In this document: piece after piece, positions 5,876 to 36,022 of the stretch | Layout of the letters: each line of letters starts with the position of its first letter | Position numbering within the stretch: position 1 is the first letter of the stretch | Assembly: GCA_964492595.1 (NCBI GenBank) | Contig: CAZBKY010000001.1 | Location: 1-42,353 of the forward strand | Origin: an uncultured Muribaculaceae bacterium | Lineage (GTDB): Bacteria; Bacillota_I; Bacilli_A; RF39; UBA660 | Direction of reading: 5' to 3' | Length of the DNA stretch: 42,353 nucleotides | Notes under the pieces: model-generated | The model's input: only the letters and a program-made list of their open reading frames with translations | Database searches by the model: none | What the model was told of the DNA's origin: nothing | Made by a program: the position numbers and the translations under genes

Positions 5876-6226
5876 TTAGTTTTTAGGTTTAAATAAGAGT
5901 GCTACTACGAAAGATATGATTATAGTGGCACAAAGACCGGCCGAGGCATTAACGAGTAATCCCTTTAATATTCCAACAACACCATCTGCGTTATACCCAT
6001 CCATAGCCCCACTTACAAGAAGATGACCGAAGTTCGTTATAGGGACAGTGGCTCCAGCTCCTGCCCATATTATAAATTTATCATATAATCCAAATCCTGA
6101 GAATATACAGCCCATTATAACAAGTATTGTATTTAAATGTCCCGGAGTAAGTTTTGAATTTTCCAATATCAACTCACCTATAAGACAGACAACACCACAA
6201 AATAAGAATGCTTTTAAATATATCAC
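5876..6226 (-). CDS. spoVAE: stage V sporulation protein AE (SpoVAEB-type membrane protein)
   Basis: 116-aa polytopic membrane protein. It overlaps the spoVAD stop by 4 nt and sits in the canonical spoVAC-AD-AE order. Confidence 0.8.
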   Translation of the reverse strand: MIYLKAFLFCGVVCLIGELILENSKLTPGHLNTILVIMGCIFSGFGLYDKFIIWAGAGATVPITNFGHLLVSGAMDGYNADGVVGILKGLLVNASAGLCATIIISFVVALLFKPKN

Positions 6227-7200
6227 TTCAACACCTCCAAACTAACTGCATGCCCTATTCCCGGCATTCCTTTTTTTAAATTCGTACTAGTCATTGAATG
6301 AAGCGCACCACTTCCAACAAACAGTATTTTTTTATAATTTTTAATTATTTCGCTAAATAAAACTAATGCACCGCAAGCAGGTCCTGAAGCTCCTGCAAAT
6401 GGAAAATTGGGTTTTGTATTATATAGAATAACTCCGGCATCTTCTGCATTTTTTAAATTAATTTTATATTTTCTTAACATATATTCCCTAAGCACAAATA
6501 ACCCATATATTCCTAAGTCTCCTGTCAAAATAATGTCATAGTAATCAGGACTTCTATCAGTAGATTTCAAATGGTCATATATTACTTCTGCAACTCCCGG
6601 CGCCATACAAGCTCCCATATCATTGGCATCCGTATGTCCCATATCAATAATTCTTCCTATATTAGCAGATTCTATTTTTATATTGCCTTTTTCAGCAGTC
6701 AGTAATGCTGAGACTGCACCACTTACGGAAAAAGAATTTGTTTTTTTTCTAAGTGAGCCATACTCTATTGGAAATCTAAATTGCTTTTCAGTTACTAAAT
6801 TACTGGCAGAACATATTACAATAGAATTATCTATAAAACCTCCCTCCAACATAATAGCAGATATTATTAACCCCTGAGCAAAACTTGCACAAGCGCTGTA
6901 AACTCCTAAAAATGGTATATCAAAATCACTGGCATTAAAATTAGATGCAAATAATTGATTTTGTAAATCCCCTCCAATCAATAAATCAACATCTTCTTCT
7001 AATAATTTATTATTTTCTAATATATTTCTGGTAACAATACTTTGATACTCGACCTCCCCTTCTTCAACAGTCTTTTTTCCCATATAATAATCATCTATTG
7101 TCATATCTACCTTTTTTCTGATCGTTGGACTGTTTTCTAGGCTGGCAAGCAATGTGAAGGTATCATTTATATATACATTTTTAAATTTAAAATTTTTCAT
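6223..7200 (-). CDS. spoVAD: stage V sporulation protein AD
   Basis: 325 aa. The thiolase/KAS-like SpoVAD pattern is present (..GGDLQNQ.., ..YSACAS.., C-terminal GSGALHS). Its ends overlap spoVAC and spoVAE. Confidence 0.85.
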   Translation of the reverse strand: MKNFKFKNVYINDTFTLLASLENSPTIRKKVDMTIDDYYMGKKTVEEGEVEYQSIVTRNILENNKLLEEDVDLLIGGDLQNQLFASNFNASDFDIPFLGVYSACASFAQGLIISAIMLEGGFIDNSIVICSASNLVTEKQFRFPIEYGSLRKKTNSFSVSGAVSALLTAEKGNIKIESANIGRIIDMGHTDANDMGACMAPGVAEVIYDHLKSTDRSPDYYDIILTGDLGIYGLFVLREYMLRKYKINLKNAEDAGVILYNTKPNFPFAGASGPACGALVLFSEIIKNYKKILFVGSGALHSMTSTNLKKGMPGIGHAVSLEVLK

Positions 7201-7631
7201 CCTAAAATCCCCTTAAATAAAGAAACTAAAAAGGCAATAATGATTCCATAAAGTATAATACTTCCTGTCAGCTTGAAAAAATTTCCTCCAATACCTTTTA
7301 CAAATCCTTCTTTTTTATAATCTAGGGCTGCACTTGTCATCGCATGAGCAAAACCAGTTGTCGGAACTATAAGACCACATCTGCAAAAAGCCACTATCTT
7401 ATCAAAAAAACCAAACCCTGTTAGTATTGAGGCTATTAAAACAAGACTAACCATTGTTAACATATATGAATCTTTAATAGAAAATTCTAAATATTTATTA
7501 AATATATATGTTAGGAATTGACCGAAAGTCCCCATAATACCTCCAAATGCAAAAGCCTTTATTAAATTTATAAAGGTATCTTCTTTACATGTTTTTTCTT
7601 TGACTATTTTTTTGTATTCTTCCTCGTTCAC
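7197..7631 (-). CDS. spoVAC: stage V sporulation protein AC
   Basis: 144-aa membrane protein (..AFAFGGIMGTFGQ.., GLIVPTTGFAH). GTG start is preceded by GGGTGA. It is the first gene of the spoVA cluster. Confidence 0.85.
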   Translation of the reverse strand: MNEEEYKKIVKEKTCKEDTFINLIKAFAFGGIMGTFGQFLTYIFNKYLEFSIKDSYMLTMVSLVLIASILTGFGFFDKIVAFCRCGLIVPTTGFAHAMTSAALDYKKEGFVKGIGGNFFKLTGSIILYGIIIAFLVSLFKGILG

Positions 7632-7648
7632 TTTTTATCACCCAATTT

Positions 7649-7677
7649 TATTATGGTACAAGATAAAAAATTAATAC
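7649..7677 (-). promoter_or_regulatory. forespore (sigma-G/sigma-F type) promoter candidate for spoVAC-AD-AE
   Basis: The minus strand reads GTATT-N17-CATAATA. The recalled consensus is GHATR-N17/18-CAHWHTA, giving a 7/7 match at -10 and 4/5 at -35. It ends about 18 nt upstream of the spoVAC GTG. Confidence 0.5.
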
Positions 7678-7830
7678 ATATAACATAGGCTGACTAATAA
7701 ATTTCAAGTCTAATTCTTGCGAATTTGCTTTTTCTGATTCTTGGGCTTTTTTGTCTACTTCCCCGGACCTTAATTTCGATAGTGGCTACTGTACTTTTTT
7801 TATCCTTCTGTGAACTTTCTTATAAGATTT

Positions 7831-7855
7831 AAAAAAACTGCTATTATTTTAGCAG
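7831..7855 (-). terminator. rho-independent terminator after the 163-aa unknown gene
   Basis: Minus strand: CTGCTA-AAATAA-TAGCAG hairpin (6-bp stem) followed by T7. It begins 8 nt after the stop codon at 7864. Confidence 0.6.
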
Positions 7856-7863
7856 ATGAATAT

Positions 7864-8355
7864 TTATTGATAGGAATGTTCTTTTACTTTTTTAAATTCT
7901 ATGGAATATTGCTTGATTATATTCTTAACGATAGCTTCTATTTCTTTTTCTTCTATTTTAATTTTAACATTATCGCTAATTATCAAAGGTTTATTATCTG
8001 TTGTATTTTTTAAAACGACAATTTCTACACTCTTATCATTTAAATCTATTATATCAGTATACATATTCCCAAATACATAACTAAAATTTAAAACTCCTGC
8101 CTCTTTAGGATCTATTATTACATATTGTTCTTGATGAGGAAACATTCCTGCAAAATTAGATTTAAGAGCATTTTCTGCTTCTTCTAATGTACTGACTTTA
8201 ACATTTCCATTAACATATATTGTCGAAACTAAACGAACATCTATAAGGTTTTTCTCGTATACTTTTCTAATAATTGCGGGTCTTATTACTGACTTTTGCA
8301 ATCTTCCGCCGACTCTTTCAATATTTTTTATTAATATAACCTGTCCAATTTTCAT
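7864..8355 (-). CDS. hypothetical soluble protein (163 aa)
   Basis: ORF between sigF and spoVAC. ATG at 8355 has AGGTG 9 nt upstream, whereas the track start at 8367 is a GTG abutting the previous stop. The N-terminus KIGQVILIKN....KSVIRPAIIRKV loosely resembles the PemK/MazF SH3-barrel motif. No firm family. Confidence 0.55.
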   Translation of the reverse strand: MKIGQVILIKNIERVGGRLQKSVIRPAIIRKVYEKNLIDVRLVSTIYVNGNVKVSTLEEAENALKSNFAGMFPHQEQYVIIDPKEAGVLNFSYVFGNMYTDIIDLNDKSVEIVVLKNTTDNKPLIISDNVKIKIEEKEIEAIVKNIIKQYSIEFKKVKEHSYQ

Positions 8356-8367
8356 ACAAAAAGACAC

Positions 8368-8532
8368 CTAAAAACACTTCTTAACTGGAAATTTTTCGTC
8401 TTTTTCAAATGAATCCAACATTGCTTTCAATTGAGGGTCATTGCTGTTAACTTTTTTTATTGTAGGTCTCATTATCTTAAGCAATTGTTCTTTCTTTTTA
8501 AGCAATGATAAAAACTTATTTTCTTTTTTCAT
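8368..8532 (-). CDS. hypothetical small basic protein (54 aa)
   Basis: MKKENKFLSLLKKKEQLLK... is preceded by a strong AAGGAGGAG RBS. The longer track ORF (to 8571) lacks an RBS. Confidence 0.5.
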   Translation of the reverse strand: MKKENKFLSLLKKKEQLLKIMRPTIKKVNSNDPQLKAMLDSFEKDEKFPVKKCF

Positions 8533-8639
8533 GACTCCTCCTTTTCTTAATTTTAACAAAATCAAAATCACTTTACAATATCATGATTTTTAATTTGTCA
8601 GTTGTGTTTTGTGAACTTTCCTGTAAGATTAAAAATTGT

Positions 8640-9296
8640 TTATGCAACCATTTCTTTTTTCATTCTGGATAATATTTTATTTTCAGCTCTTGATACTTGC
8701 ACCTGAGACATTCCCATCATATCTGCAGTTTCACATTGAGTATAGTCTTCATAATATCTATATTTAATAATTTTTCTTTCTTTTTCTGTTAATTTATCAA
8801 GCTCTTGTTTTAAATCTATGCTACTTTCTACTAGTTCTCGTTCATCATTACCGATGACATCTTGGAGTAAAAGATCTTCTGCGACTTCTTTATCTATACT
8901 TTCTGTCGGATAATTATTACAAATTGCATTATAAAGATCTAGTTCACTTATTCCCATGAAAGCGGCTATATCTGAAAGAGAAGGTTCAAAGCCTTTAGAG
9001 CTAATTAAAAAATCTCTTGCTTTTTTATATAATTTATATATTTTAGCATTATTTCCATTTAATTTTACCAACCTGTCATTTTTCAGATAATTAGCCATCT
9101 CTCCTAAAATATCATGGTATGCGTATGTGGAAAATGCAGTATTAAATTCTTTTTTATATCTTTTATATGCTTTAATTACTCCTATACAGCCCACCTGAAA
9201 TAAATCCTCAATATGAGAGTGTCCACAAAAATCATAAGCAATTTTATAAATCATTCCTTTATTTTCATTAATTACTCTATAATATTCCGCATTCAT
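8640..9296 (-). CDS. sigF: sporulation sigma factor SigF-like
   Basis: 218 aa. DLFQVGCIGVIKAYKRY, FSTYAYHDILGEM and YRYYEDYTQCETADMMGMSQVQVSRAENKIL parallel B. subtilis SigF (DLFQIGCIGLLKSVDKF, FSTYAVPMIIGEI, LRYYKDQTQSEVAERLGISQVQVSRLEKKIL). The start overlaps the spoIIAA stop as ATGA. Confidence 0.8.
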   Translation of the reverse strand: MNAEYYRVINENKGMIYKIAYDFCGHSHIEDLFQVGCIGVIKAYKRYKKEFNTAFSTYAYHDILGEMANYLKNDRLVKLNGNNAKIYKLYKKARDFLISSKGFEPSLSDIAAFMGISELDLYNAICNNYPTESIDKEVAEDLLLQDVIGNDERELVESSIDLKQELDKLTEKERKIIKYRYYEDYTQCETADMMGMSQVQVSRAENKILSRMKKEMVA

Positions 9297-9634
9297 AATT
9301 CAAACACTCCAAGGGCAGACTTTTCATTTTTTACTTTATAAAGTATTTTTTCTATTAAACTGCCTTTTAATAGTTTGTCCAGTTTTCTATTTTTTATTAA
9401 TGTTGTCTTTCCATTATATTTAATTACTATATCATTTATTTCTTCAAACAGTTCCATAGCATAATTATCTATATAATTAACATTATCAAGATTTAATACA
9501 ACATACCTAAAACCATACTTTAATAATAAAGGTATTATAGATTTTCTTAAGTCAATAGAATTTGTTTTATTTAATTCTCCATCTATTCTCACAAATAGAA
9601 CTCCTTTTTTAAACTCTATATCTGTTTTAAACAT
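9293..9634 (-). CDS. spoIIAA: STAS-domain anti-anti-sigma factor (SpoIIAA-like, no phospho-serine)
   Basis: 113 aa. GVLFVRIDGELN...YVVLNLDNVNYIDNYAMEL aligns to B. subtilis SpoIIAA VLCIRLTGELD...HIVLNLEDLSFMDSSGLG. The gene lies immediately upstream of sigF. Confidence 0.75.
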   Translation of the reverse strand: MFKTDIEFKKGVLFVRIDGELNKTNSIDLRKSIIPLLLKYGFRYVVLNLDNVNYIDNYAMELFEEINDIVIKYNGKTTLIKNRKLDKLLKGSLIEKILYKVKNEKSALGVFEL

Positions 9635-9685
9635 ATATTCACCTGCCTAATAAGTTTAGATTGTTTTTTTATTATTTTATACACA

Positions 9686-9692
9686 TTCGACA
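9686..9692 (-). promoter_or_regulatory. Spo0A-box-like heptamer upstream of spoIIAA
   Basis: The minus strand reads TGTCGAA, an exact match to the TGNCGAA 0A box. It lies about 52-58 nt upstream of the spoIIAA ATG and is followed by TGTGTATAAAAT. Confidence 0.4.
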
Positions 9693-9709
9693 AAACTAGA
9701 AAAATAATT

Positions 9710-10768
9710 CTATCGACTATTTTTTAAGTTTATACTTATTTTTCTACATATAAGTATAAGAAGTATTAATATTCCGCCTAAAGCGATAATAAATACGGGT
9801 AATTTTGAATAATCTTCAGATGTCTTTTTGTTTCCATAATTTATTGCAATAACCTCATCTTCATTATAAGCGGGCTTTATTTCTTCATTATTTTTATTAT
9901 TATAGATGTTTTTATAAATAATCTCGGATTCAACTGTTTTATATTCATAAAAGTATGTTTTTGTATTTTCATCTTTGATATATTCATTTAAATAAGTAAA
10001 ATATCCATCAAAATATTCTTTTTCATAACTATAACAATTGACATAACTATCTTTAAATCTGTAATATTTCTCTTCATAATTATCCATTTCATCCCAAGTA
10101 TATAAAGAAGTAATCTTATAGCTGCAGTAATATGTAGAACATGTCTTATATGTGCCGCCCAGAGTCGTTATTCCTTTAGATTTTACAGGATACTTGTAAT
10201 CAACCAACAATGTAGATTTAAAGTATAAAATATTATTAGTTTTCTCAAATCTAATCTCGACTTGTGGAACTTCAGTATGAAAATTATTGAGATTTAAAAA
10301 TATTTTAGAATCTTTATTTAAAATTAAATTTCCAGCTTCATTTGTAGTGCAATTTATGCAGTGCGCTAATTCAAAAGCTATATTCTTGTCGCTATTATCT
10401 GTAATTACAATACTCTTTAATTCTAAAAATTCAACTATAAAATTATCAATCAAAATTGTATTATATTTTTCATCAGATAAATCAATAATATTCACTTTTT
10501 CTTCTATTGTCCTGCCTTCTTTTTCATCGGGCTTAACCAAGTTCCATTCACTAAAGTTATTTTCTACTTCATCAAAATATTCGCAATTGTGTTTAACAGC
10601 ATTTTCGTAATGTTCGTTTACCTTTTTTAGTTTATACCATTTATATCTTTCCTCAACACTTGTAATAATTATGCTTTTATTTAAAGGTAGTTCATTTGTA
10701 AATGTTTTAGAATATATATCAGGCATAAATAAAAAAGTACATAATATAAAAATTATTGTTTTTTTCAA
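9710..10768 (-). CDS. hypothetical secreted protein with C-terminal membrane anchor, Tyr/Cys-rich
   Basis: 352-aa ORF with an N-terminal signal-like segment (MKKTIIFILCTFLFM) and a C-terminal TM helix (LPVFIIALGGILILLILI). No family recognised. Confidence 0.55.
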   Translation of the reverse strand: MKKTIIFILCTFLFMPDIYSKTFTNELPLNKSIIITSVEERYKWYKLKKVNEHYENAVKHNCEYFDEVENNFSEWNLVKPDEKEGRTIEEKVNIIDLSDEKYNTILIDNFIVEFLELKSIVITDNSDKNIAFELAHCINCTTNEAGNLILNKDSKIFLNLNNFHTEVPQVEIRFEKTNNILYFKSTLLVDYKYPVKSKGITTLGGTYKTCSTYYCSYKITSLYTWDEMDNYEEKYYRFKDSYVNCYSYEKEYFDGYFTYLNEYIKDENTKTYFYEYKTVESEIIYKNIYNNKNNEEIKPAYNEDEVIAINYGNKKTSEDYSKLPVFIIALGGILILLILICRKISINLKNSR

Positions 10769-10883
10769 TTTCTCCTCCTCTATTTTTATTATACGAGTGT
10801 TTTTTTTAAAACACTTTTTTGTTTTTAAGTTTTTTTGTCATAAATATTTAAAAATAAAGAATAATAATATTGGAGTGATTTTT

Positions 10884-11633
10884 ATGCCAAATGTTCACAG
10901 CAATATATCTTTCGGTCTAGTAAGTATACCAGTTATCATAAATCCTATAATTAAAAATAATGATACTTCTTTTAACCAACTTCATAAAAAATGTCTTCAT
11001 CGAGTTCAATATATAAAATATTGTCCTCACTGTAAAGAAGATATCAAAGAAAGTGATATAACCAAAGGATATGAATTTGAAAATGATAACTATATTATTT
11101 TTAATAAAGAGGAATTAAGTAAATTAAGACCAGAAAATGAAAAAGAAATAGAAGTAATCGCTTTTGTTGATGAGAGAGAAATAGATTCATATTATTTTGA
11201 AAAAAGCTATATTTTAAAATCTGATACTAAATCTAAATCTTATATTCTTTTTTATGAGGCATTAAAAGAAACTGGAAAAGTGGCTCTCGCCAAGACTGTC
11301 TTGGGAGGGAAGTTTTATTATTGTGTTTTAAAGTTCAATAGATTTGGTATAGTTCTTACAACTTTATATTTTGAAGAGGAAATAATAACTCCAGAAGCTG
11401 AAATTGAAGGCAAAATAAATGAAAAAGAATTAAATTTAGCTATAAAATTAATAGATAATTTAAAAGGTAAATTTGAACCACAAAAATATAAAGATGAATA
11501 TCAAAATAAAATAAAAGAAGCAATAGATGATAAATTAAAGGGCAAGAAAATAAAAACAACAAGAAAAAAGCCCAAAAAACAGATAAATGATTTAATGGAA
11601 GCATTGGAAAAGAGTCTAAAAATTAAAAAATGA
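10884..11633 (+). CDS. ku: non-homologous end joining protein Ku
   Basis: MPNVHSNISFGLVSIPV..., KGYEFENDNYIIF..EEL and EVIAFVD..EIDSYYFEKSY parallel B. subtilis YkoV. GGAG lies 8 nt upstream of the ATG at 10884. The track ORF from 10671 is an unsupported 5' extension. Confidence 0.9.
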   Translation: MPNVHSNISFGLVSIPVIINPIIKNNDTSFNQLHKKCLHRVQYIKYCPHCKEDIKESDITKGYEFENDNYIIFNKEELSKLRPENEKEIEVIAFVDEREIDSYYFEKSYILKSDTKSKSYILFYEALKETGKVALAKTVLGGKFYYCVLKFNRFGIVLTTLYFEEEIITPEAEIEGKINEKELNLAIKLIDNLKGKFEPQKYKDEYQNKIKEAIDDKLKGKKIKTTRKKPKKQINDLMEALEKSLKIKK

Positions 11634-12517
11634 ATATTTGGAAAAATAAAAACTGGGTTCCAATGCTTTTGGAAAGAATTGATAAACCTTTTAATTCAAA
11701 AGATTACATATTTGAATTGAAATTTGATGGAATAAGAACTTTAATATTTGCAAATCCTGAGAAAATAATTATTAAAAACAGAAATAAAACAGATGTAACA
11801 CATTTATATCCTGAGCTTCAAAATATTAAAAATATTGTTAATTCTAATACTATTTTTGATGGAGAAATTATATGCTTTGAAAATGGTGAGCCATCTTTTA
11901 AAAAACTTCAAGAAAGATCTCATTTAAAAGGCAATGATAAAATCTTATATCACATGGAAAACAATCCTGCTGTTTTTATATGTTTTGATATTGTTTATAA
12001 GGATAAAGATTTAACTAAACTTCCTCTTTTAAAGAGAAAAGAAATATTAAGCCTCTTTAAAGACACTGAGTCATTTATAAAAACAAAATATATAGATACT
12101 GATGGAATTAAATTATTTAATAAGGTCAAAAAATTAAATTTAGAAGGAATAATTGCAAAGAAAAAAAATAGTATTTATAAAATCAATACCAGAGATAACA
12201 GTTGGATAAAAATAAAGAATTTAAGAATGGAAGAATTTATAATTGGAGGATATATAGAAGAAAAGAAAAATTTTGTTGTTTCTTTATTGCTGGGAGAAAT
12301 CATTAAAAATGAACTTCACTTTGTGGGAAAAGTATTGATGGGTAAAAAAAATAAATTATATAGTGAACTTATACATTCTAAAACACTCAAAAATAGTCCT
12401 TTTAAAAATCATACTGATGATGAGGCAATATACACACAACCCGTTAAAACATGTAAAATTAAATATTTAGAAAGAACAGCAAGTAATCGCTTGAGGCAGC
12501 CTATTTTCGTCAAATAA
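11630..12517 (+). CDS. ligD: ATP-dependent DNA ligase, LigD ligase-domain-only form
   Basis: 295 aa. It has the adenylation motif I, ELKFDGIR (KxDG). ATGA overlap with the ku stop. It is too short to include polymerase/primase or phosphoesterase domains. Confidence 0.85.
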   Translation: MNIWKNKNWVPMLLERIDKPFNSKDYIFELKFDGIRTLIFANPEKIIIKNRNKTDVTHLYPELQNIKNIVNSNTIFDGEIICFENGEPSFKKLQERSHLKGNDKILYHMENNPAVFICFDIVYKDKDLTKLPLLKRKEILSLFKDTESFIKTKYIDTDGIKLFNKVKKLNLEGIIAKKKNSIYKINTRDNSWIKIKNLRMEEFIIGGYIEEKKNFVVSLLLGEIIKNELHFVGKVLMGKKNKLYSELIHSKTLKNSPFKNHTDDEAIYTQPVKTCKIKYLERTASNRLRQPIFVK

Positions 12518-12587: not shown

Positions 12588-13775
12588 TTATATTAGACTT
12601 ACCTCTCCACTTATTATATCTTTGAAATTATTATATAACATTCTTATAAAATTTGCTTTTACAACCTTATTTTTAACAATTAAATCATATTTATATTCTT
12701 TTTTATCATAAGTAAGTATTAAGTTTCCTACAACATCTCCCTTTTTTAAAGGAGCTCTTACATTCTTATATAGTTGGGTTTTCACATCATAATTTATATT
12801 TTCTGTGTTTATATCAACCAATATATTAACATCTTCCTTTACATAATAGGAGGCATTTCTATTTTTCCCATTATTTACATATAGAATTCCCAATTTTTTA
12901 TTTGAGTTCACAATCATTTTAGTATTATATATAGCAAACCCATATTCCATCATACTTATAGTATCACTATTTCTCGCTTCTTTTGTAGATACTCCCATTA
13001 CAACCCCTATAAGTCTCATATCGTTTTTCTTCATTGTAGATGTTAAACAGTATTTTGCCTGATCTGTAAAGCCTGTTTTCAAACCGTCCATTCCTTTATA
13101 AAATCGCACTAATGAATTTGTATTAACAAGCCAGTGGTTTTCTCCGCTTACATTTATATATTCTTCATAAGTACTTGTTATTTTCAATATTTCTTCATAT
13201 TTTACAAGTTCACTAGACATTAAAGCAAGATCATAAGCGGTAGTATAATGATTTACTTCATCAAGACCGTGAGGATTTTTAAAATTAGTATTAATTGCCC
13301 CTAATTCTTTAGCTCTTTTATTCATCATAGCAACAAAGTTTTCTTCTGTTCCACCAATTTTTTCTGCAAGAGCAACTGCAGCATCATTGGCTGAAGCAAT
13401 ACCAATACCTTTTAGCAAATCACTTACTTTTACATTTGTATTTGCTTCTACAAATATTTGAGTTCCTCCCATACCTGAAGCATTTTTACTTATAAAAACA
13501 TCATCATTTAATTTTATTTTACCTTTATCTAAAGCTTCCATAACAAGAAGCATTGTCATTACTTTTGTCATTGATGCCGGAGACAACTTCTCATTGGCAT
13601 TCTTCTCATAAAGCACTGTTTTAGTGCTCGCTTCCATAAGAATCGCACTTTTGCTGTTTGGTGCATAGTCAGCTTTAGAGCCTTCAGTTATTTCTTTGTT
13701 AACTGGAACTCCATCTGCAATAAAGGAACTCATAAATATAAAAAATGATATTAATACTACTATTGTTTTCTTCAT
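12588..13775 (-). CDS. D-alanyl-D-alanine carboxypeptidase, PBP5/DacF-DacB family (S11)
   Basis: 395 aa with a signal peptide, the SxxK motif (SPASMTKVMT), ASANDAA and KTG (LKTGFT). This is the typical low-MW PBP layout with a C-terminal beta-sandwich domain. Confidence 0.85.
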   Translation of the reverse strand: MKKTIVVLISFFIFMSSFIADGVPVNKEITEGSKADYAPNSKSAILMEASTKTVLYEKNANEKLSPASMTKVMTMLLVMEALDKGKIKLNDDVFISKNASGMGGTQIFVEANTNVKVSDLLKGIGIASANDAAVALAEKIGGTEENFVAMMNKRAKELGAINTNFKNPHGLDEVNHYTTAYDLALMSSELVKYEEILKITSTYEEYINVSGENHWLVNTNSLVRFYKGMDGLKTGFTDQAKYCLTSTMKKNDMRLIGVVMGVSTKEARNSDTISMMEYGFAIYNTKMIVNSNKKLGILYVNNGKNRNASYYVKEDVNILVDINTENINYDVKTQLYKNVRAPLKKGDVVGNLILTYDKKEYKYDLIVKNKVVKANFIRMLYNNFKDIISGEVSLI

Positions 13776-13905
13776 ACCCCACCTAAAAAATAATATGATA
13801 TAAATATCTAAATATACCGATGTTTTTAATATTGTAAATTGTTATTACTTTTATTCTAAATAACTTAAAAAGTGCTATAATTAATAATATAAGGAAATAG
13901 AATAT

Positions 13906-15718: not shown

Positions 15719-16993
15719 TTATTTAATAACTTTTAATATTATATTTTTTTCTCTAGGTTTTTTGTTAATTATAATATATGCATTTAAAACTTGAGAAATC
15801 ATTTTTTCAACTTCTTTATTATAATAAATACTGCATAATATTTCATCTCTTTCGACAAAGTCTCCAATTTTTTTTCTCAATATTATCCCAGAGTTATTGT
15901 CAATTTTAGAGCCTAGGCTACCTCCAAAGGCAAGCATAGAAGACAAACTCCCAATATATTCTGCATTTATTTCTTTGATAAAACCTGACTTAACACTTTT
16001 AACATCTATTCTTTTAGCATTCATTTTTACTTCTGATAATCTACCACCCTGTGATTTTATCCATTCATAAAATTTATCTTTTGCCTTACCATTTTTTATA
16101 ACTTTTACAACCTCTTTAAGAGCTTCTTTATATTTAATATTTTTAGATATCATCAGCATATATGCAGATAATTCCAAAGTAAGTTTCTCAAGTCTTTCAT
16201 TTCTATTTCCCTCAAAAAAGTTTATTACTTCTTTTACTTCTAGTATATTTCCTACATTACTTCCCAAAGGACTATTCATATCTGATAAAATACATATTAT
16301 ATTTTTTTCATATTTTTTTCCAATATATATCATTAACCTTGCAAGTTTTTTAGCGCTTCTTAAATCTTTCATGAAAGCACCCTTGCCAACTTTAAGGTCA
16401 ATTACTATATTTTTTGCTGAACAGGCTATTTTTTTACTCATAATAGAACTTGCTATTAAAGGAATGGAATCTACATAACCTGTTTTATCTCTTAATGCAT
16501 AAATTTTTTTATCGGCTAAAGCTATATTTTCATTTTGACATATATCTGCACATCCAACTGTATTTATTATGTTGATGAATTCTTCATCAGTTAATTCACT
16601 TTTAAATCCTGGAATGCTTTCAAGTTTATCTATCGTACCGCCAGTTATTCCCAAACTTCTTCCACTCATTTTAGGTACAGCCAGTCCTAAAGATGCGCAA
16701 ATGGGAAGAATTAGCAATGAAATTTTATCTCCAACACCCCCACTTGAATGTTTGTCGACTGTTGTTTTTTTTACCTTTGACAAATCTATTATATTTCCAC
16801 TTTTAACCATTACATCAGTTAAATAATACGTTTCTTTTTTACTTAAACCCTTTTCATAAATGGCTTTAATAAATAAGGTCATAACTTCTTCGCTAATATC
16901 TTCCTTTATAAAACTTTTTACCATATATTCTATTTCTTCATATGATAAAGTTTTTCTCTTGTTTTTTTTATTTATTATATTTTCACTATTCAT
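15719..16993 (-). CDS. pdp: pyrimidine-nucleoside (thymidine) phosphorylase
   Basis: 424 aa with DKHSSGGVGDK and SGRSLGITGGTIDKLESIPG signatures. Confidence 0.9.
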   Translation of the reverse strand: MNSENIINKKNKRKTLSYEEIEYMVKSFIKEDISEEVMTLFIKAIYEKGLSKKETYYLTDVMVKSGNIIDLSKVKKTTVDKHSSGGVGDKISLLILPICASLGLAVPKMSGRSLGITGGTIDKLESIPGFKSELTDEEFINIINTVGCADICQNENIALADKKIYALRDKTGYVDSIPLIASSIMSKKIACSAKNIVIDLKVGKGAFMKDLRSAKKLARLMIYIGKKYEKNIICILSDMNSPLGSNVGNILEVKEVINFFEGNRNERLEKLTLELSAYMLMISKNIKYKEALKEVVKVIKNGKAKDKFYEWIKSQGGRLSEVKMNAKRIDVKSVKSGFIKEINAEYIGSLSSMLAFGGSLGSKIDNNSGIILRKKIGDFVERDEILCSIYYNKEVEKMISQVLNAYIIINKKPREKNIILKVIK

Positions 16994-17063: not shown

Positions 17064-18152
17064 TTATGTTAAATCTTCAAATGTTTTCTCTTTAATTATT
17101 TTATTATTTTCTTTTAATCTTTCATTTTCGGGATCTAATTTTAAAGCTATTTCATTAAATTCAAGGGCTTTTGAATATAAACCTATATTATAATAACTTA
17201 TTGAACTCAAATCATATATCGTGCTATCCCATGAAAAATTCTCATTAATATATGTTTTTCCTCTTTCTTTTATCTTTAAGGCTTCATCACACATGTGCAG
17301 ACAGGCAAGCCAATTTTCAGTTTCATACTCCAGTAATGCCATCTCTACATATGGCTCTCTTAAATATGGGCTTTCTATTATTGCCTTATATAACCATTCT
17401 CTAGATAAATCATATTGTTTTTTATATTTATAACATCTTGCAATATAACGCATTGAAGCACATCTTTCATCTTTCCAAGTTGCCTTTTCTAAAGATAAAT
17501 GTTTTATTAAAGTTTTAATTGCCTCATCGTACATTTGATAAAACATATATTCTCTTCCTAAATAATGAACGTTTCGGTCATCAGAGGGATCTTCTTTAAC
17601 TGATAATTCTAAAAGCGGTAAATAATTAGATCGAGACTTGGTATCATCTGGATAATGATTTACTTCAAACCCTGAAACATAGTTTATTTTTTCAATTCCA
17701 TCTCCTATATATTTTAAAACTTCATGAACAGGATGCTTCCAAGTATAATCTTTTTTATTGTGTATTTTTTCAATCATGAAACTTACTGATGGTTTACCAT
17801 ACTTATCAAAACTCCAATTATAGTTATATTTCAATCTTGTAGTTTTTTCATCCCAGATTTTTTCAACATGTTTTCTCCATCCTTTTGTTATTATTTCATC
17901 TAAATCCGTAGATACACATATATCGATGTTATCTGGTATTTTTTTTAAAACCATATTTCTAGCCTTGTCAAATCTCCATGGATTTACTTTTATTTTATAT
18001 ACTTTTGCACCTAATTTTTTTAATTTTAAAATTGTATCATCAGTTGAACCTGTATCTCCCACTATTACCATATCTGCTTCTTTTACAGATTCATACCACC
18101 TTTCAACGAATTTACTTTCATTCTTTGCAATTGCATAAACGCATATTTTCAT
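17064..18152 (-). CDS. family-2 glycosyltransferase fused to TPR repeats
   Basis: 362 aa. GT-A N-terminus (ICVYAIAKNE...VGDTGSTDDT, DxD at TDLDE) and a C-terminal half with TPR-like Y/A/L periodicity. It lies directly downstream of the collagen-like gene on the same strand. Confidence 0.7.
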   Translation of the reverse strand: MKICVYAIAKNESKFVERWYESVKEADMVIVGDTGSTDDTILKLKKLGAKVYKIKVNPWRFDKARNMVLKKIPDNIDICVSTDLDEIITKGWRKHVEKIWDEKTTRLKYNYNWSFDKYGKPSVSFMIEKIHNKKDYTWKHPVHEVLKYIGDGIEKINYVSGFEVNHYPDDTKSRSNYLPLLELSVKEDPSDDRNVHYLGREYMFYQMYDEAIKTLIKHLSLEKATWKDERCASMRYIARCYKYKKQYDLSREWLYKAIIESPYLREPYVEMALLEYETENWLACLHMCDEALKIKERGKTYINENFSWDSTIYDLSSISYYNIGLYSKALEFNEIALKLDPENERLKENNKIIKEKTFEDLT

Positions 18153-18255: not shown

Positions 18256-19302
18256 TTAAACTATGTTTATTCCTGCACTAGCATAGCCAGTTACAGTTTG
18301 TAATAAATTTAATCCATTAGCATTTATAGTAAATACCATTAATAATCTTGTTCCTGCAGTTACTGCAATATTTAATCCAGTTAAGTTGCCTCTAACAATA
18401 TCTCCTATATTTATTATTCCACTCAAGTTCGGTGTTAAAGTTACATCTGTTCCCGCTACTGGAGTGAAAATATTATTAGGAGTTGTTGATTGATATAACT
18501 GAGCATGAACAGTAATATCTGTACTTATAAGTGTCAATCCAAGTACTACACTAAAATAAGCTTCTATATCTGTAATTGTTCCATTTCTTGGAACTGAAAA
18601 TGCCAAATTGGCTAATAAACCTGCAGCTCCTGTTAAATCAATATTTAGACCCAATATGTTTGGTAATGTTGTACTTGTTCCAAATCCGACTATAGCTGGT
18701 AATCCTGCCAATCCCAAAGCAATACTTGTAGGAGCTACTGGTAATCCTGAAGCATATGGTATTATTGCACCTGCTCCATTTAAACCTGCTGTTCCCTGTG
18801 GTCCAGTCGGACCGGTTGCACCTTGAATTCCTTGAATTCCTTGTGGTCCAGTTGGTCCAGTTGGTCCGGTTGGCCCAGTTGCTCCATTTGTTCCAGCATT
18901 ACCTTGTGGCCCTGTCGGTCCTGTGGCTCCTATTGGCCCCTGGATTCCTTGAGCACCTTGTGGTCCTATAATTCCTTGAGGTCCGGTTGCTCCCATCGCT
19001 CCAGTTGGACCAGTAGCTCCATTTGCACCTTGGGCGCCTTGTGGCCCTTGAGGGCCTACTTCACCCTGAGAACCTTGAGAACCATTTGCTCCGGTTGCAC
19101 CTGTTGGTCCTTGTATTCCTTGTACTCCCTGAACTCCCTGCGGACCCTGTGGACCTGTTGATCCGGTTGGCCCTGTCGGTCCAGTTGGACCAGTTGGCCC
19201 TGTCGGTCCTCCCGAAGGTCCTGTTGGTCCTGTCGGCCCAGTAGGACCATAACATGTATAACATGGACAAGGATTATTACATAAATTTTTAAATCCATCC
19301 AT
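18256..19302 (-). CDS. collagen-like exosporium glycoprotein, BclB-type C-terminal domain
   Basis: About 160 residues of uninterrupted G-x-y triplets (GPT, GPQ, GAT...) are followed by IIPYASG..., the start of the BclB-related C-terminal domain. The N-terminus is Cys-rich ([11 protein letters not shown]). ATG at 19302 follows GAGGTG, whereas the track start at 19311 is a GTG inside the RBS. Confidence 0.8.
18760..19250 (-). repeat. collagen G-x-y triplet-repeat coding tract (locally GC-rich)
   Basis: Runs of ggtcc/ggacc 9-mers encode (GPT)n and GxQ triplets. All six frames lack stops here, which produces several spurious overlapping ORFs in the track. Confidence 0.9.
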
Positions 19303-19481
19303 TTTTTTCACCTCTTTTTCTTACATTTTATTGTATGAAGTTAAATAAAAATAGAACTTACATTAAACTAAGTTTAGGTGAAAATGTGTTAATGTATTAT
19401 TTTCAATTTCTTTAATAAAACAGTACAAAAATAATTGTTTATATTTTTATATTAACATAGAATTTAATAAGGAGAATAATT

Positions 19482-21350: not shown

Positions 21351-22222
21351 TTAAATTTCCATCTTTGATTTATCATTTATTGAATTATTAAGTGATTTTA
21401 GTTTATCAATACTAGCATTATTTTGTAGTGATTTTAATTGTGATAATGCATAATAATTTAGATTTTTTAACCTATCTTTTTGAGTGATATTATCTTTTAT
21501 CATTATTGAGTTAGAACTTTCCATATTGGATAATACAATTAATTGTTCAATAGTTGCATAATCTCTTATATTTCCTTTTTTATCTTTATTTCTATTTCGC
21601 CAATCTTTCGCAGTCATTCCAAATAATGCCACATTTAATACATCAGCTTCACTAGCATAAGTATAATTTATTTGCTCTTTTGTAAGTATAGGTAATATTA
21701 GATTTTCTTTTATAGCATCTGTGTGAATTCGATAATTACCTTTAGCAATTATTCTTCTTACATTCCATTCTATTTGGTTTTGATAATATTCATTCTTTTT
21801 TAATCTTTGGAATTCAATTATTACATATAATTAAACTCTGGGCTTAACCAACTGGCAAACTCAAAGGCTATATCAGAATGAGCAAAAGTACCACCATTAT
21901 TACCTGATTTTGAGATTATACCTATAGCATCAGTTTCTTTTATCCATTTTTGAGGAGACATATAAAAACTATTTCTCCCGGCTTTATTTTCAAAGGTCGT
22001 AAATTTGTGACCTTTGAAATTTTTATTATTAAGTTTTTCCCATAACCCTAAGTATAGTATAACATCAGTATTTCTCATCCATGTTTGAACAGGCACTTTT
22101 GGTTCTTCTGGATTGGCATATCTTGCTAAATCTGTAAGAGAAATATATTCTACTTCTCCTACTCACAATACTTTTATTTTTTCATGATTCACTTCAAGTT
22201 CTGTTTTAATAATATTTTCCAT
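21351..22222 (-). pseudogene. KilA-N domain protein gene, inactivated
   Basis: Read from the ATG at 22222, there is an in-frame TGA at 22163-22165 (..KIKVL*VGEVEYISLTDLARY..). A frameshift near 21826-21835 splits ..AHSDIAFEFASWLSPEF / KLYVIIEFQRLKKNEYYQ... The track shows only two fragments (21821..22096 and 21351..21632). Confidence 0.75.
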
Positions 22223-22294
22223 TAGTTTCTCTCCTTTCAATTTTCACTATGTATTTTAATTTGTGTTTATCTATTAATCTATAAAACATATTAT

Positions 22295-22705
22295 CTATTC
22301 TACTACATAATTCCATAATGTTATCTGTGCAGTCTTCCCAGTAATTGCATAATGCAGTTTGTTTTGAACAATTTTAAAAAAAGTATATGCTTCATTACTA
22401 TCTTTGTTATAATCAATGCTTGTTATTTCAAATATATCCAATATTTTTTTATAAACTCTATACTCACTAGTTCTAATTTCTTTTATTTCAATTAATAACT
22501 CATCAAAATAATCTTTACCAAATTTAGAACTATTTTTAAGTCTTTCCTTATCTAATTTATACCCTTTGATAATATAATCTTTTAAAACACTAGTAGCCCA
22601 TATTCTAAACTGTGTTGCTTTTTTACTATTAACTCTATAACCCACTGCAATGATAGCATCTAAATTATAAAAGCCTGTGTTATAAGTTTTTCCATCAGAA
22701 AAATC
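22295..22705 (-). pseudogene. rhuM-like gene remnant (5'- and 3'-truncated)
   Basis: It encodes only the middle of a RhuM-family protein: ..DFSDGKTYNTGFYNLDAIIAVGYRVNSKKATQFRIWATSVLKDYIIKGY..VQNKLHYAITGKTA... There is no N-terminus, a stop lies just upstream in frame, and it ends prematurely. Confidence 0.65.
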
Positions 22706-23509
22706 TTGCCAAATTAGTTAATCCCATGTTGTCTTTTTTTGAATCAACTCTGTTTTATATTATTTCAGCAGCAGTATTACCAGTAATTGCATGATGAAAT
22801 TTATTTTGTATTGTTTTATAAAATTTTTTGTAATTTCGCTGTCTCTGTCTCTATTATAGTCAATAGAACATTCAGAAAATATATCTGTTATTTTTTGATA
22901 AAACATCCTTTCGCTTACTCGAATTAATTTAATTCTTTCAAGTAATCTATCAAAATATTCTTTATCTGCTTTTTTACCTTTTAAAAATCTGTTATCATCT
23001 AAAGCAAAACCTTGTATTATATATTCTTTAATTATTTTGTTTGCCCAAGTTCTAAATAAAATAGCTTTCTTTGAATTAATTCTAAACCCAATTGAAATAA
23101 TCATATCCAAATTATAATATTTTGTTTTATATTTTTGGCCAGTCTTACCCATATGTTCCAAAATGGAACATGTGTTATCTTCATTTAATTCTTCTTGCTC
23201 ATATATATTATTAACATGTTTGGTTACAGCAGGTCTTTCAACACCAAAAAGTCTTGAAATCATTTCAGTATTAAGCCATATATTCTCATCAGAATACAAA
23301 ACCTCAACATTAACATTTCCATCTTCGTTAGTGTAAATAAGAATATTATTTTGCTGAAATGCTTTCCAATTAATTATAATACGTACTAAATTAAAAGAAA
23401 AAGATAGTTTATTCATTAAAATTTCTATCTTTTTTATATTTTTAAAAGTTTTTCTTTCTATTATATGCTCTTTACATATATTTAGTTTATCTTGTGTTGT
23501 TAATTTCAT
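22695..23509 (-). pseudogene. rhuM-like gene, frameshifted and nonsense-mutated, with foreign 5' leader
   Basis: RhuM pattern NILIYTNEDGNVNVEV...YYNLDMIISIGFRINSKKAILFRTWANKIIKEYIIQGF. A frameshift occurs before ..KKFYKTIQNKFHHAITGNTAAEII. TAA at 22755-22757 sits where family members have Tyr, then NRVDSKKDNMGLTN follows. The first ~25 codons (MKLTTQDKLNICKEHIIERKTF) look like an IS3-type OrfA N-terminus. Confidence 0.65.
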
Positions 23510-25219: not shown

Positions 25220-25831
25220 TCACTTAAAATTTAACTCTTTTTTTAATTTTTGTTTTAATCTAAACATAGTATTTTCAATACTTCGTTTATCTTTGTTTAG
25301 TATTTTACAAATTTCTTTATTTTCATAGCCTTCTATTTTTAAAGCAAACACTTTTAATTCAAATTTAGTTAATATATTTTTAGCTATATTCAGTATTTCT
25401 TCTGAACTCTCTTTATCTATCAATTCTACACTTGGATCTGATTTTTCATCTTTTACTATTTCATTAATATTTGTTATCTCACTTTCTGTAAGGCCTTCTA
25501 AAGAAACTGAATTATTTAAACTCTGATTTCTTTTTTTATTGCCTACTTTCAGTGCTGATTTTATGTGAGATTCAATACATACAGGAGCATAAGTGTAAAA
25601 CAATACATTTTTATTTACATTATATGTGTCAATTGCTTTTGATAAACCTATAAAACCTTCTTGTACCAAGTCTTTTTCTTCGATTCCAAATGAACTGGCA
25701 ATAAATATATATTTTTTAGCAATTGCATATACAATTCCAGTATATTTTTTTATTAATTCAAGTTTTGCCTCTTCACTAGATTCTGAGACTAAAAACAAAA
25801 GTTCATTATCATTTGCGCCTTCATACTTCAT
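25220..25831 (-). CDS. sigH: sporulation-initiation sigma factor SigH
   Basis: 203 aa. DLVQEGFIGLSKAIDTY and ..ESHIKSALKVGNKKRNQSLNNSVSLE parallel B. subtilis SigH (DIVQEGMIGLYKAIRDF, ..RQKHIPLNSYVSLD). It sits directly downstream of rlmB, as in the Bacillus yacO-sigH region. Confidence 0.8.
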   Translation of the reverse strand: MKYEGANDNELLFLVSESSEEAKLELIKKYTGIVYAIAKKYIFIASSFGIEEKDLVQEGFIGLSKAIDTYNVNKNVLFYTYAPVCIESHIKSALKVGNKKRNQSLNNSVSLEGLTESEITNINEIVKDEKSDPSVELIDKESSEEILNIAKNILTKFELKVFALKIEGYENKEICKILNKDKRSIENTMFRLKQKLKKELNFK

Positions 25832-35010: not shown

Positions 35011-36022
35011 TTAATTTTTATTTGAATTTTCCCTATTTACTTTTTTTTCTATCATTTTTATAACTTCTAAATAATCTTTTTCAGCACTACTTAAAGTTTT
35101 AGATTGATATTTTTTATACTTTTTTTCAGCTTTTTCCATAGCTTTCAAATGACTGATTTTACCTTTCCCAGATAGCAATTTTTCTCCACTCATTGTTAAA
35201 ATATTATTTAAGTGTTTAACCCAGTCAGTCATTTTCATGGAAATATGTCTTTCTGCTTGTCTTTCAGCAAAAGCCAGATATCCTTCAACTATTTGATTTA
35301 ATGTTTTTAATTCTTTTAGAGTTAGATAATTTTTAGCGGTTTTAGCCTCTATTAGTGTTTGGCTCTTCTCCTGCAAATGATATAAGTCCCATATAATCTT
35401 TTTCACTGTCAACACGTGTATATACAACTTCTGCTGCTGTATTACTGTGAACTGCATAGTGTATTTTATTTTGAACTGTTTTAAAGAATTCTATTGATGT
35501 TTTATCTTTAGGATTATAATCTATACTTGTTGCGTAAATATCTAATACCTGCCTATAAAAAACTTTTTCACTGGAACGAATGTCTCTTATTCGTTCAATT
35601 AATTCCCTCCAGTAGTTTCCCCCACCTAATTTTTTAAGTTTTTCATCGTTCATAGCAAAGCCTTTAATCATATATTCTTTTAAAACTTTTGTAGCCCATT
35701 TTCTAAATGCTATTGCTTTATTTGAATTAACTCTATAACCTATCGCAATTATCATTTCTAAATTATAAAATAATAGCCCTCTGCTGATATTTCTGTTGCC
35801 TTCTTTTTGAACTTGTCGAAAGTTTTGACAAGTTGATTTTTCTTCCAATTCTTTTGAAGAGTATATTTCTTGTATATGATGAATTATAGTATTATGTTTA
35901 ACATCAAATAACTCAGCTAATTTCTTTTGGGTAAGCCAAACATTTTCATTTTCCAGTAAAACATCAATTTTTATATTGTTGCTTTCATCGGTATAAATTA
36001 CTACATTGCTTTTATCTTCCAT
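35011..36022 (-). pseudogene. rhuM-family gene split by a frameshift
   Basis: The N-terminal ORF (36022..35342) has VVIYTDESNNIKIDVLLENENVWLTQKKLAELF...YNLEMIIAIGYRVNSNKAIAFRKWATKVLKEYMIKGF...HSNTAAEVVYTRVDSEKDYMGL. The C-terminal part continues in another frame (..AKNYLTLKELKTLNQIVEGYLAFAERQA..) from about 35370. Confidence 0.7.

Follow-up and report, generated by a model that had tools for sequence, protein, structure and literature searches.

We analyzed a stretch of 42,353 nucleotides from an uncultured bacterium (contig CAZBKY010000001.1 of assembly GCA_964492595.1; hereafter the window), which carries on its minus strand a two-gene operon resembling the spoIIA operon of endospore-forming bacteria. 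The first gene (9293-9634) encodes a SpoIIAA-like STAS protein of 113 amino acids (aa) that has Asn57 in the column of the phospho-acceptor Ser58. The second (8640-9296) encodes a sigma-F-like factor of 218 aa with the domains Sigma70_r2 and r4. The two genes overlap by four nucleotides. Direct reading of the plus strand gave tcat at 9293-9296 and hence ATGA on the coding strand of the two genes, with the ATG of the sigma gene at 9296-9294 and the TGA of the STAS gene at 9295-9293. A GGAG ribosome-binding site lies on the minus strand within 9293-9310, inside the 3' end of the STAS gene, and the ribosome-binding region of the STAS gene is AGGCAGGTGA, at 9639-9648 of the same strand. The overlap suggests that the STAS and sigma genes are translationally coupled. 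Of 12 loci with a read or annotated junction, 10 keep it; among the related loci, which we refer to by L numbers, the exceptions are L014, with a 7-bp gap containing AGGAGG, and L018, with a gap of 30 bp.

No gene for the SpoIIAB kinase was found at this locus. A profile made from SpoIIAB of B. subtilis and G. stearothermophilus was run on the window and on 20 related loci (306 kb), all translated in six frames, and its best match had E=1.7. The B. subtilis sequence used for it was validated against the PDB, where it scored 232 bits to 1TIL_A. Neither HATPase_c nor PP2C was detected in window open reading frames (ORFs) of at least 90 aa, and no HATPase_c was present among the annotated neighbors in the related loci examined. 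An earlier reading of this DNA, made from the sequence alone (the original prediction), had held that the ATGA overlap leaves no room for a third gene and that no ORF from 7632 to 9710 is of the HATPase type. Both statements stood up to our analysis: the overlap was confirmed at 9293-9296, and the two other ORFs of that interval had no match in Pfam, NCBIfam or PHROG.

The kinase-less STAS-sigma-spoVA layout was found in every related locus examined. Because of this recurrence, it is explained neither by an assembly accident nor by chance. The layout occurs in at least 14 loci, over which the identity of the sigma factor falls to about 45%. An order of dacF, an uncharacterized gene, STAS, sigma (216-220 aa) and spoVAC-AD-AEB is shared by L002-L006, L013-L016, L018 and L020. 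Even in L014, L015 and L016, where sigma identity is about 45%, STAS is followed by sigma and then by spoVA, with no HATPase gene. The STAS proteins of the layout-sharing loci have diverged so far that they fall into different 50% clusters, and the close STAS homologs (60-81% identity) show the same gene order through scpAB and the same 4-bp overlap. When a STAS profile was searched against 1.84 billion cluster representatives (50% clustering), 398 members were recovered at E<=1e-3.

The STAS protein matched Pfam STAS with E=2.9e-10 and scored 35.3 bits against TIGR02886 (spore_II_AA), for which the equivalog cut-off is 114.75. Ungapped phmmer alignments paired query residues 5-61 with the same positions of B. 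subtilis SpoIIAA (1AUZ), and query residues 4-60 with positions 5-61 of 1TH8_B, the G. stearothermophilus SpoIIAA chain from a SpoIIAB complex. An AlphaFold2 (AF2) model of the protein reached a predicted local distance difference test (pLDDT) value of 90 and a predicted template modeling (pTM) score of 0.83. Foldseek returned 1TH8_B as the top match of this model (TM score 0.91, root mean square deviation 1.5 A, 24% identity). All of the top five matches were SpoIIAA chains with TM scores of 0.89-0.92, the best of them from SpoIIAB complexes. Because the model superposes best on SpoIIAA chains, we consider the protein to have a true SpoIIAA-type fold and the alignment to be reliable.

In the phmmer alignments YIDNYAM of the query was paired with FMDSSGL, which puts Asn57 at Ser58, Tyr58 at Ser59 and Ala59 at Gly60. 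A MAFFT alignment with B. subtilis SpoIIAA assigned Asn57 to the same column. The phospho-acceptor column is thus occupied by Asn and not by Ser or Thr, and the original prediction had been right to place Asn-Tyr-Ala where Ser58-Ser-Gly belong.

Column counts for the family were taken from the best 150 of the 398 STAS cluster representatives. Positions of structural importance are kept: G20 in 150/150, N49 in 146/150, D57 in 142/150, R17 in 141/150 and G60 in 134/150, and the surface around D57-x-x-G60-I61 is conserved. At the Ser58 column we found K in 27 sequences, E in 24, S in 21, N in 16, I in 10, L and M in 7 each, D in 6, and others. Among the 129 sequences in which the D-x-x-G motif is clean, 15.5% had Ser or Thr at the site. 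E21 and D23, to which we ascribe a docking role towards SpoIIAB, were kept in 15/150 and 16/150 representatives. The R67 column holds Ile66 in the window protein and L, N, I, C, S or V in the family; these six most frequent residues, none of them Arg, account for 113/150. In SpoIIAA, R67 contributes to the interfaces with SpoIIAB and with SpoIIE alike (PMC11418112). At the phospho-site, two distant members in the same STAS-sigma layout carry Glu (in P0279) and Tyr (in P0281). L006 and L013 retain Ser there, yet no kinase gene is adjacent. Because these Ser-bearing loci also lack the kinase, we regard the Asn of the window protein as one outcome of drift and not as a specific adaptation. Together, these patterns suggest that the phospho-acceptor and the residues contacting kinase and phosphatase are under relaxed constraint in this family, and that the STAS protein has probably ceased to serve as a kinase substrate.

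Among NCBIfam models, the sigma factor scored highest with SigB/F/G (153 bits) and spore_sigF (TIGR02885; 150.7 bits, against an equivalog cut-off of 321.45), ahead of SigG (116 bits) and SigB (100 bits). In Pfam, regions 2 and 4 matched strongly and region 3 weakly. The closest solved relative is sigma-F itself (1L0O_C, 117 bits), with query residues 8-213 aligned to chain residues 33-243. Because this alignment begins at chain residue 33, the canonical N-terminal segment is lacking. The protein is probably a shortened sigma-F without the roughly 30 N-terminal residues of the canonical form, whose full length is about 250 aa. A homolog search gave 519 relatives at E<1e-20, and the best 120 of these are all 215-222 aa long.

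Both genes seem to be maintained. Pairwise ratios of nonsynonymous to synonymous substitution rates (dN/dS) were 0.08-0.31 for STAS and 0.07-0.38 for sigma, values that are approximate because dS (0.6-1.7) is near saturation. Over the same relatives STAS is more conserved than sigma (60-81% versus 55-67% identity). These data point to a functional STAS gene under purifying selection.

The region upstream of the operon is conserved as well. On the minus strand, the Spo0A-box consensus TTTGTCGAA lies at 9686-9694, 52 nt upstream of the STAS ATG. In the aligned upstream region of 130 bp, the block TCTA..TTTGTCGAA.TG is invariant in all 10 loci. Because synonymous sites are near saturation, the conservation of this block argues for function. 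A second Spo0A-like box, AGTCGAT (9712-9718, minus strand), lies 26 bp upstream of the first and overlaps the stop codon of the 352-aa gene. This box (xGTCGAxxG) is present in 9/10 loci and reads TGTCGAT or xGTCGAA in relatives. The arrangement is consistent with direct Spo0A control of the STAS-sigma operon, as we infer by analogy to spoIIA in Bacillus. Elsewhere in the window another exact TTTGTCGAA is located at 15851-15859 (minus strand), inside a pyrimidine-nucleoside phosphorylase gene. TGTCGAA occurs at 4 sites in the window against 1.35 expected, and four sites were reached in 4 of 100 shuffles.

The operon most likely belongs to AT-rich, genome-reduced Bacilli of the order RF39 and a family like UBA660. 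The GC content is 27% in the window and 24-30% across all loci, and the Ffh protein of the window has a homolog at 79% identity with the same local order of Ffh, radical-SAM and RecX. For comparison, the RUG30208 genome (o__RF39;f__UBA660) has 26.1% GC and measures 0.88 Mb at 86% completeness (PMC7820578). Four of the related records (L008, L009, L011 and L013) are labeled Muribaculaceae; their gene content and GC of 25-28% do not fit this label, and they are probably mislabeled.

Along the minus strand the genes follow each other in the order dacF-like, 352-aa gene, STAS, sigma, two small ORFs, spoVAC-AD-AEB and scpA/scpB. The spoVA genes are spoVAC (7197-7631) and spoVAEB (5876-6226), both matching Pfam SpoVAC_SpoVAEB, and spoVAD (6223-7200), matching Pfam SpoVAD, with E-values of 1e-28 to 1e-88 for the trio. 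They are the canonical downstream neighbors of sigF, and here they are followed by scpA and scpB. On the other side, a gene for a dacF-like D-Ala-D-Ala carboxypeptidase is located at 12588-13775 (minus strand); Peptidase_S11 was assigned to its orthologous genes in relatives. Promoter-like motifs precede both: GTATT-N17-CATAATA before spoVAC (7649-7677, minus strand), of the sigma-G/F type, and GTATA-N15-CATATTA before dacF (13791-13818, minus strand), of the forespore type. By eye, the spoVAC motif was recognizable in 7/8 loci, the copy of L014 deviating. Motifs of the form GnATR-N15-18-CATnnTA before spoVAC and dacF are kept in most of the relatives inspected and fit sigma-G as well as sigma-F.

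Directly upstream of the STAS gene lies a conserved gene for a 352-aa protein (9710-10768, minus strand) with a signal-like N-terminal segment and a C-terminal membrane segment. The protein had no match in Pfam, NCBIfam, PHROG or PDB. A gene for a protein of about 320-370 aa occupies the orthologous position in L002, L005, L006, L013, L015, L016 and L020, and most relatives keep the neighbor in synteny. It could be a sporulation protein specific to this lineage. We considered it as a substitute regulator and judged this unlikely, given its mostly extracytoplasmic appearance and the lack of a known domain. Between sigma and spoVAC, two ORFs of 67 aa (8368-8571) and 167 aa (7864-8367) abut at 8367/8368 on the minus strand; they too had no match in Pfam, NCBIfam, PHROG or PDB. 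In relatives the gap between sigma and spoVAC measures 36-84 bp, and the two ORFs occur in this genome alone. They are outside the conserved module. Their candidacy as a substitute anti-sigma factor was rejected, as they match no family or PDB entry and none of the relatives has them.

A Ku-like gene (10671-11633) and a gene for a LigD-like ATP-dependent DNA ligase (11630-12517), assigned by motifs in the translations alone, are located on the plus strand between dacF and the operon and are not found at this position in relatives. In L002 (4423-6534), a 703-aa large serine recombinase (Resolvase and Recombinase domains) and small ORFs lie between dacF and the conserved 352-aa-type gene. The region between dacF and the STAS operon appears to be an insertion hotspot. 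Fragments of the RhuM-family, Bro-N and KilA-N types at 21351-23509 and 35011-36022 (both minus strand) appear to be decayed remnants of mobile elements or prophages; among them, two overlapping RhuM ORFs (35011-35457 and 35342-36022) look like one frameshifted gene.

Further genes of the window fit a sporulation context. The 3' part of a sigK-like gene is found at 2-535 on the plus strand (best NCBIfam match SigK, 140.7 bits) and runs off the window start. We rejected the idea of a split sigK, since its frame stays open as far as the edge of the window and the gene is therefore cut by the window, not split by an inserted element. A sigH-like gene (25220-25831, minus strand; 103-114 bits to SigH models, below their cut-offs) is located directly downstream of a gene for a SpoU-family rRNA methylase, a pair that presumably echoes the rlmB...sigH neighborhood of Bacillus. 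Genes for a collagen-triple-helix protein (18256-19311) and a glycosyltransferase of family 2 (GT2) with TPR repeats (17064-18152), both on the minus strand, resemble exosporium loci for BclA-type glycoproteins, and L002-L004 and L006 have such a pair close to the operon as well. Because of the sigK-like, the sigH-like and the exosporium-reminiscent genes, the genome looks like that of a spore-former.

We asked how the locus compares with known systems. Like spoIIA of Bacillus and Clostridium, it has dacF upstream and spoVA downstream, the same first and last genes, a protein of SpoIIAA fold, a sigma factor closest to sigma-F and an upstream region bearing Spo0A boxes. Unlike spoIIA, it has no spoIIAB, Ser58 varies freely, R67, E21 and D23 are not kept and sigma is about 30 residues shorter at its N-terminus, while spoIIE is reported to be scarce or missing across the order. 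The RsbV-RsbW-SigB system and other modules of STAS, HATPase and PP2C proteins share with it a single-domain STAS gene immediately upstream of a group-3 sigma factor. They differ in that the present locus encodes no HATPase kinase and no phosphorylatable residue, and belongs to sporulation and not to a stress response. The STAS protein HsbA of Pseudomonas is said to bind FlgM, and HsbA is reportedly still phosphorylated. To our knowledge, no STAS protein is known to bind a sigma factor directly. A further likeness is found in MlaB-MlaF (PMC7367683), where a small STAS regulator reportedly binds a partner other than a HATPase kinase, although the partners and pathways are unrelated.

Surveys of cultured Firmicutes count spoIIAA, spoIIAB, sigF and spoIIE among the core genes common to all spore-formers (PMC3533761; bioRxiv 10.1101/2022.02.25.481979), and with a predictor for metagenome-assembled genomes (MAGs), each of the 63 genomes predicted to sporulate had spoIIAB (PMC12536801). 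For RF39, however, a survey of RF39, RFN20 and ML615J-28 reported reduced or absent spoIIAB and spoIIE (PMC10868615, Microb Genom 2024). That survey is a table of presence and absence by KEGG; unlike our analysis, it describes no retained SpoIIAA-like gene, no lost phospho-site, no coupling and no promoter. The kinase loss has thus been documented before, as one entry of such a table, and the retained non-phosphorylatable STAS protein is the new detail. Our literature searches found no earlier account of a retained non-phosphorylatable SpoIIAA, of its coupling to a shortened sigma-F or of the conserved promoter.

On this basis we consider the locus to be probably the positional and functional counterpart of the spoIIA operon after deletion of spoIIAB, with coupled genes for STAS and a short sigma-F and with the non-phosphorylated STAS protein as a putative partner in the control of sigma-F. 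Because the SpoIIAB gene has been lost from the operon and the SpoIIAA-like protein is not phosphorylatable, the textbook switch of sigma-F activation is expected to differ in this lineage. The original prediction had proposed a partner switch of SpoIIAA and SpoIIAB that was rewired or simplified. The kinase loss in all loci, the drift of the phospho-site and of R67 and the published survey (PMC10868615) support this proposal, and the evidence for a simplification now reaches beyond one genome to a whole lineage.

How such a simplified system might work can be sketched. Because its promoter region carries conserved Spo0A boxes, the operon is probably turned on by phosphorylated Spo0A (Spo0A~P), as in Bacillus. 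The STAS protein would be made in step with sigma-F and could act as a stoichiometric binding partner independently of phosphorylation, and sigma-F would then drive forespore-type promoters such as those before dacF and spoVA. For the mode of action we favor binding of STAS to sigma-F itself, as a holder, inhibitor or chaperone, with antagonism of a non-kinase anti-sigma factor as the second choice. Direct binding of STAS to sigma-F is nevertheless put forward tentatively, as one possibility.

Several points weigh against the reading proposed here. The absence of the kinase holds for the 42 kb of the window and for 10-20 kb at each related locus, the placement in RF39 is an indirect one that draws on the 79% identity of Ffh, and the statement on RF39 in PMC10868615 is a loosely worded one from KEGG orthologue assignment, which fast-evolving genes can escape. 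Both STAS and sigma score far below the NCBIfam equivalog cut-offs, and because of this the orthology of both proteins leans on synteny and on the ranking of their hits. Near-saturation of dS makes the dN/dS values approximate, the promoters were read by eye as matches to a consensus, and the organisms are uncultured, so that sporulation is only predicted. Finally, about 16% of the family keep Ser or Thr at the phospho-site, and a kinase may still act in some sublineages.

Part of this bears directly on the idea that a SpoIIAB- or RsbW-type kinase is encoded elsewhere, unlinked from sigF, and that STAS is still its antagonist, possibly by binding without phosphorylation. The short stretches of genome in view and the Ser- or Thr-bearing family members fit such a kinase, and the wording of the survey ('reduced presence or complete absence') would allow spoIIAB in some RF39 genomes (PMC10868615). 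Yet none of the loci examined, deeply diverged as they are, has the gene in its operon, and S58, R67, E21 and D23 all drift, which would be unexpected of an extensive kinase interface that still served its purpose (PMC11418112). Moreover, spoIIAB and spoIIE are scarce or absent at the level of the order (PMC10868615), and all cultured spore-formers, including Turicibacter, keep spoIIAA, spoIIAB and sigF adjacent (PMC13492147). We therefore regard an unlinked kinase as improbable. Somewhat more credit, if still little, is due to a STAS protein that antagonizes an unrelated non-kinase anti-sigma-F encoded elsewhere, with switching by ligand, proteolysis or localization in place of phosphorylation. 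The strong conservation of STAS, its co-expression with sigma-F and the conserved surface around D57-x-x-G60-I61 would suit this idea, as would the ability of STAS proteins to bind non-kinase partners, reportedly exemplified by MlaB with the MlaF ATPase (PMC7367683). But no candidate partner gene is conserved beside the operon: the sole conserved neighbor is largely extracytoplasmic with a very short cytoplasmic tail, and the two extra ORFs of the window are absent from relatives.

Alternatively, sigma-F might be left without post-translational control, relying on Spo0A-dependent transcription alone, while STAS does a job unrelated to sigma-F and is kept for co-expression. Uninhibited sigma-F is toxic in B. 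subtilis, as textbooks teach, and the 4-bp coupling preserved across most of the family and the slower evolution of STAS relative to sigma also speak against this scenario. In its favor are the drift of all residues tied to known SpoIIAA function, the reduced genomes of RF39/UBA660 MAGs (about 0.9-1 Mb; PMC7820578) and the loss of many regulators in these orders (PMC10868615); we hold it to be about as improbable as an unlinked kinase. Lowest of all we rate a decaying remnant in a non-sporulating lineage, in which the loss of kinase and serine would mark early gene loss. Sporulation has been lost repeatedly in related orders (PMC10868615), and neither protein reaches its equivalog cut-off. However, both genes are intact in every locus with dN/dS well below 1, the upstream promoter block is invariant, the spoVAC-AD-AEB, dacF, sigK-like and sigH-like genes are intact and the promoter-like motifs are conserved. 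The size of the STAS family (398 representatives at 50% clustering) also argues against decay, and a remnant is accordingly very hard to credit.

The partner switch of SpoIIAA, SpoIIAB and SpoIIE is the textbook mechanism of cell-specific gene activation in endospore formation. That a whole widespread order of gut endospore-formers does without the switch of phosphorylated SpoIIAA, SpoIIAB and SpoIIE, and uses STAS as a direct regulator of sigma-F (anti-sigma factor or chaperone), is a speculative extension to which we give still less weight than to direct binding as such. If true, a STAS-type anti-sigma factor or sigma chaperone would be a kind of sigma-factor control not described before. 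Predictors that treat spoIIAB as universal, such as the marker set of PMC12536801, would misjudge this lineage, and the finding bears on whether abundant uncultured gut Bacilli with genomes of about 1 Mb sporulate, with consequences for transmission and for cultivation strategies. The lineage represents a natural deletion experiment on the minimal requirement for compartment-specific activation of sigma-F, and with its STAS protein, a function that does not depend on the kinase becomes open to study on its own.

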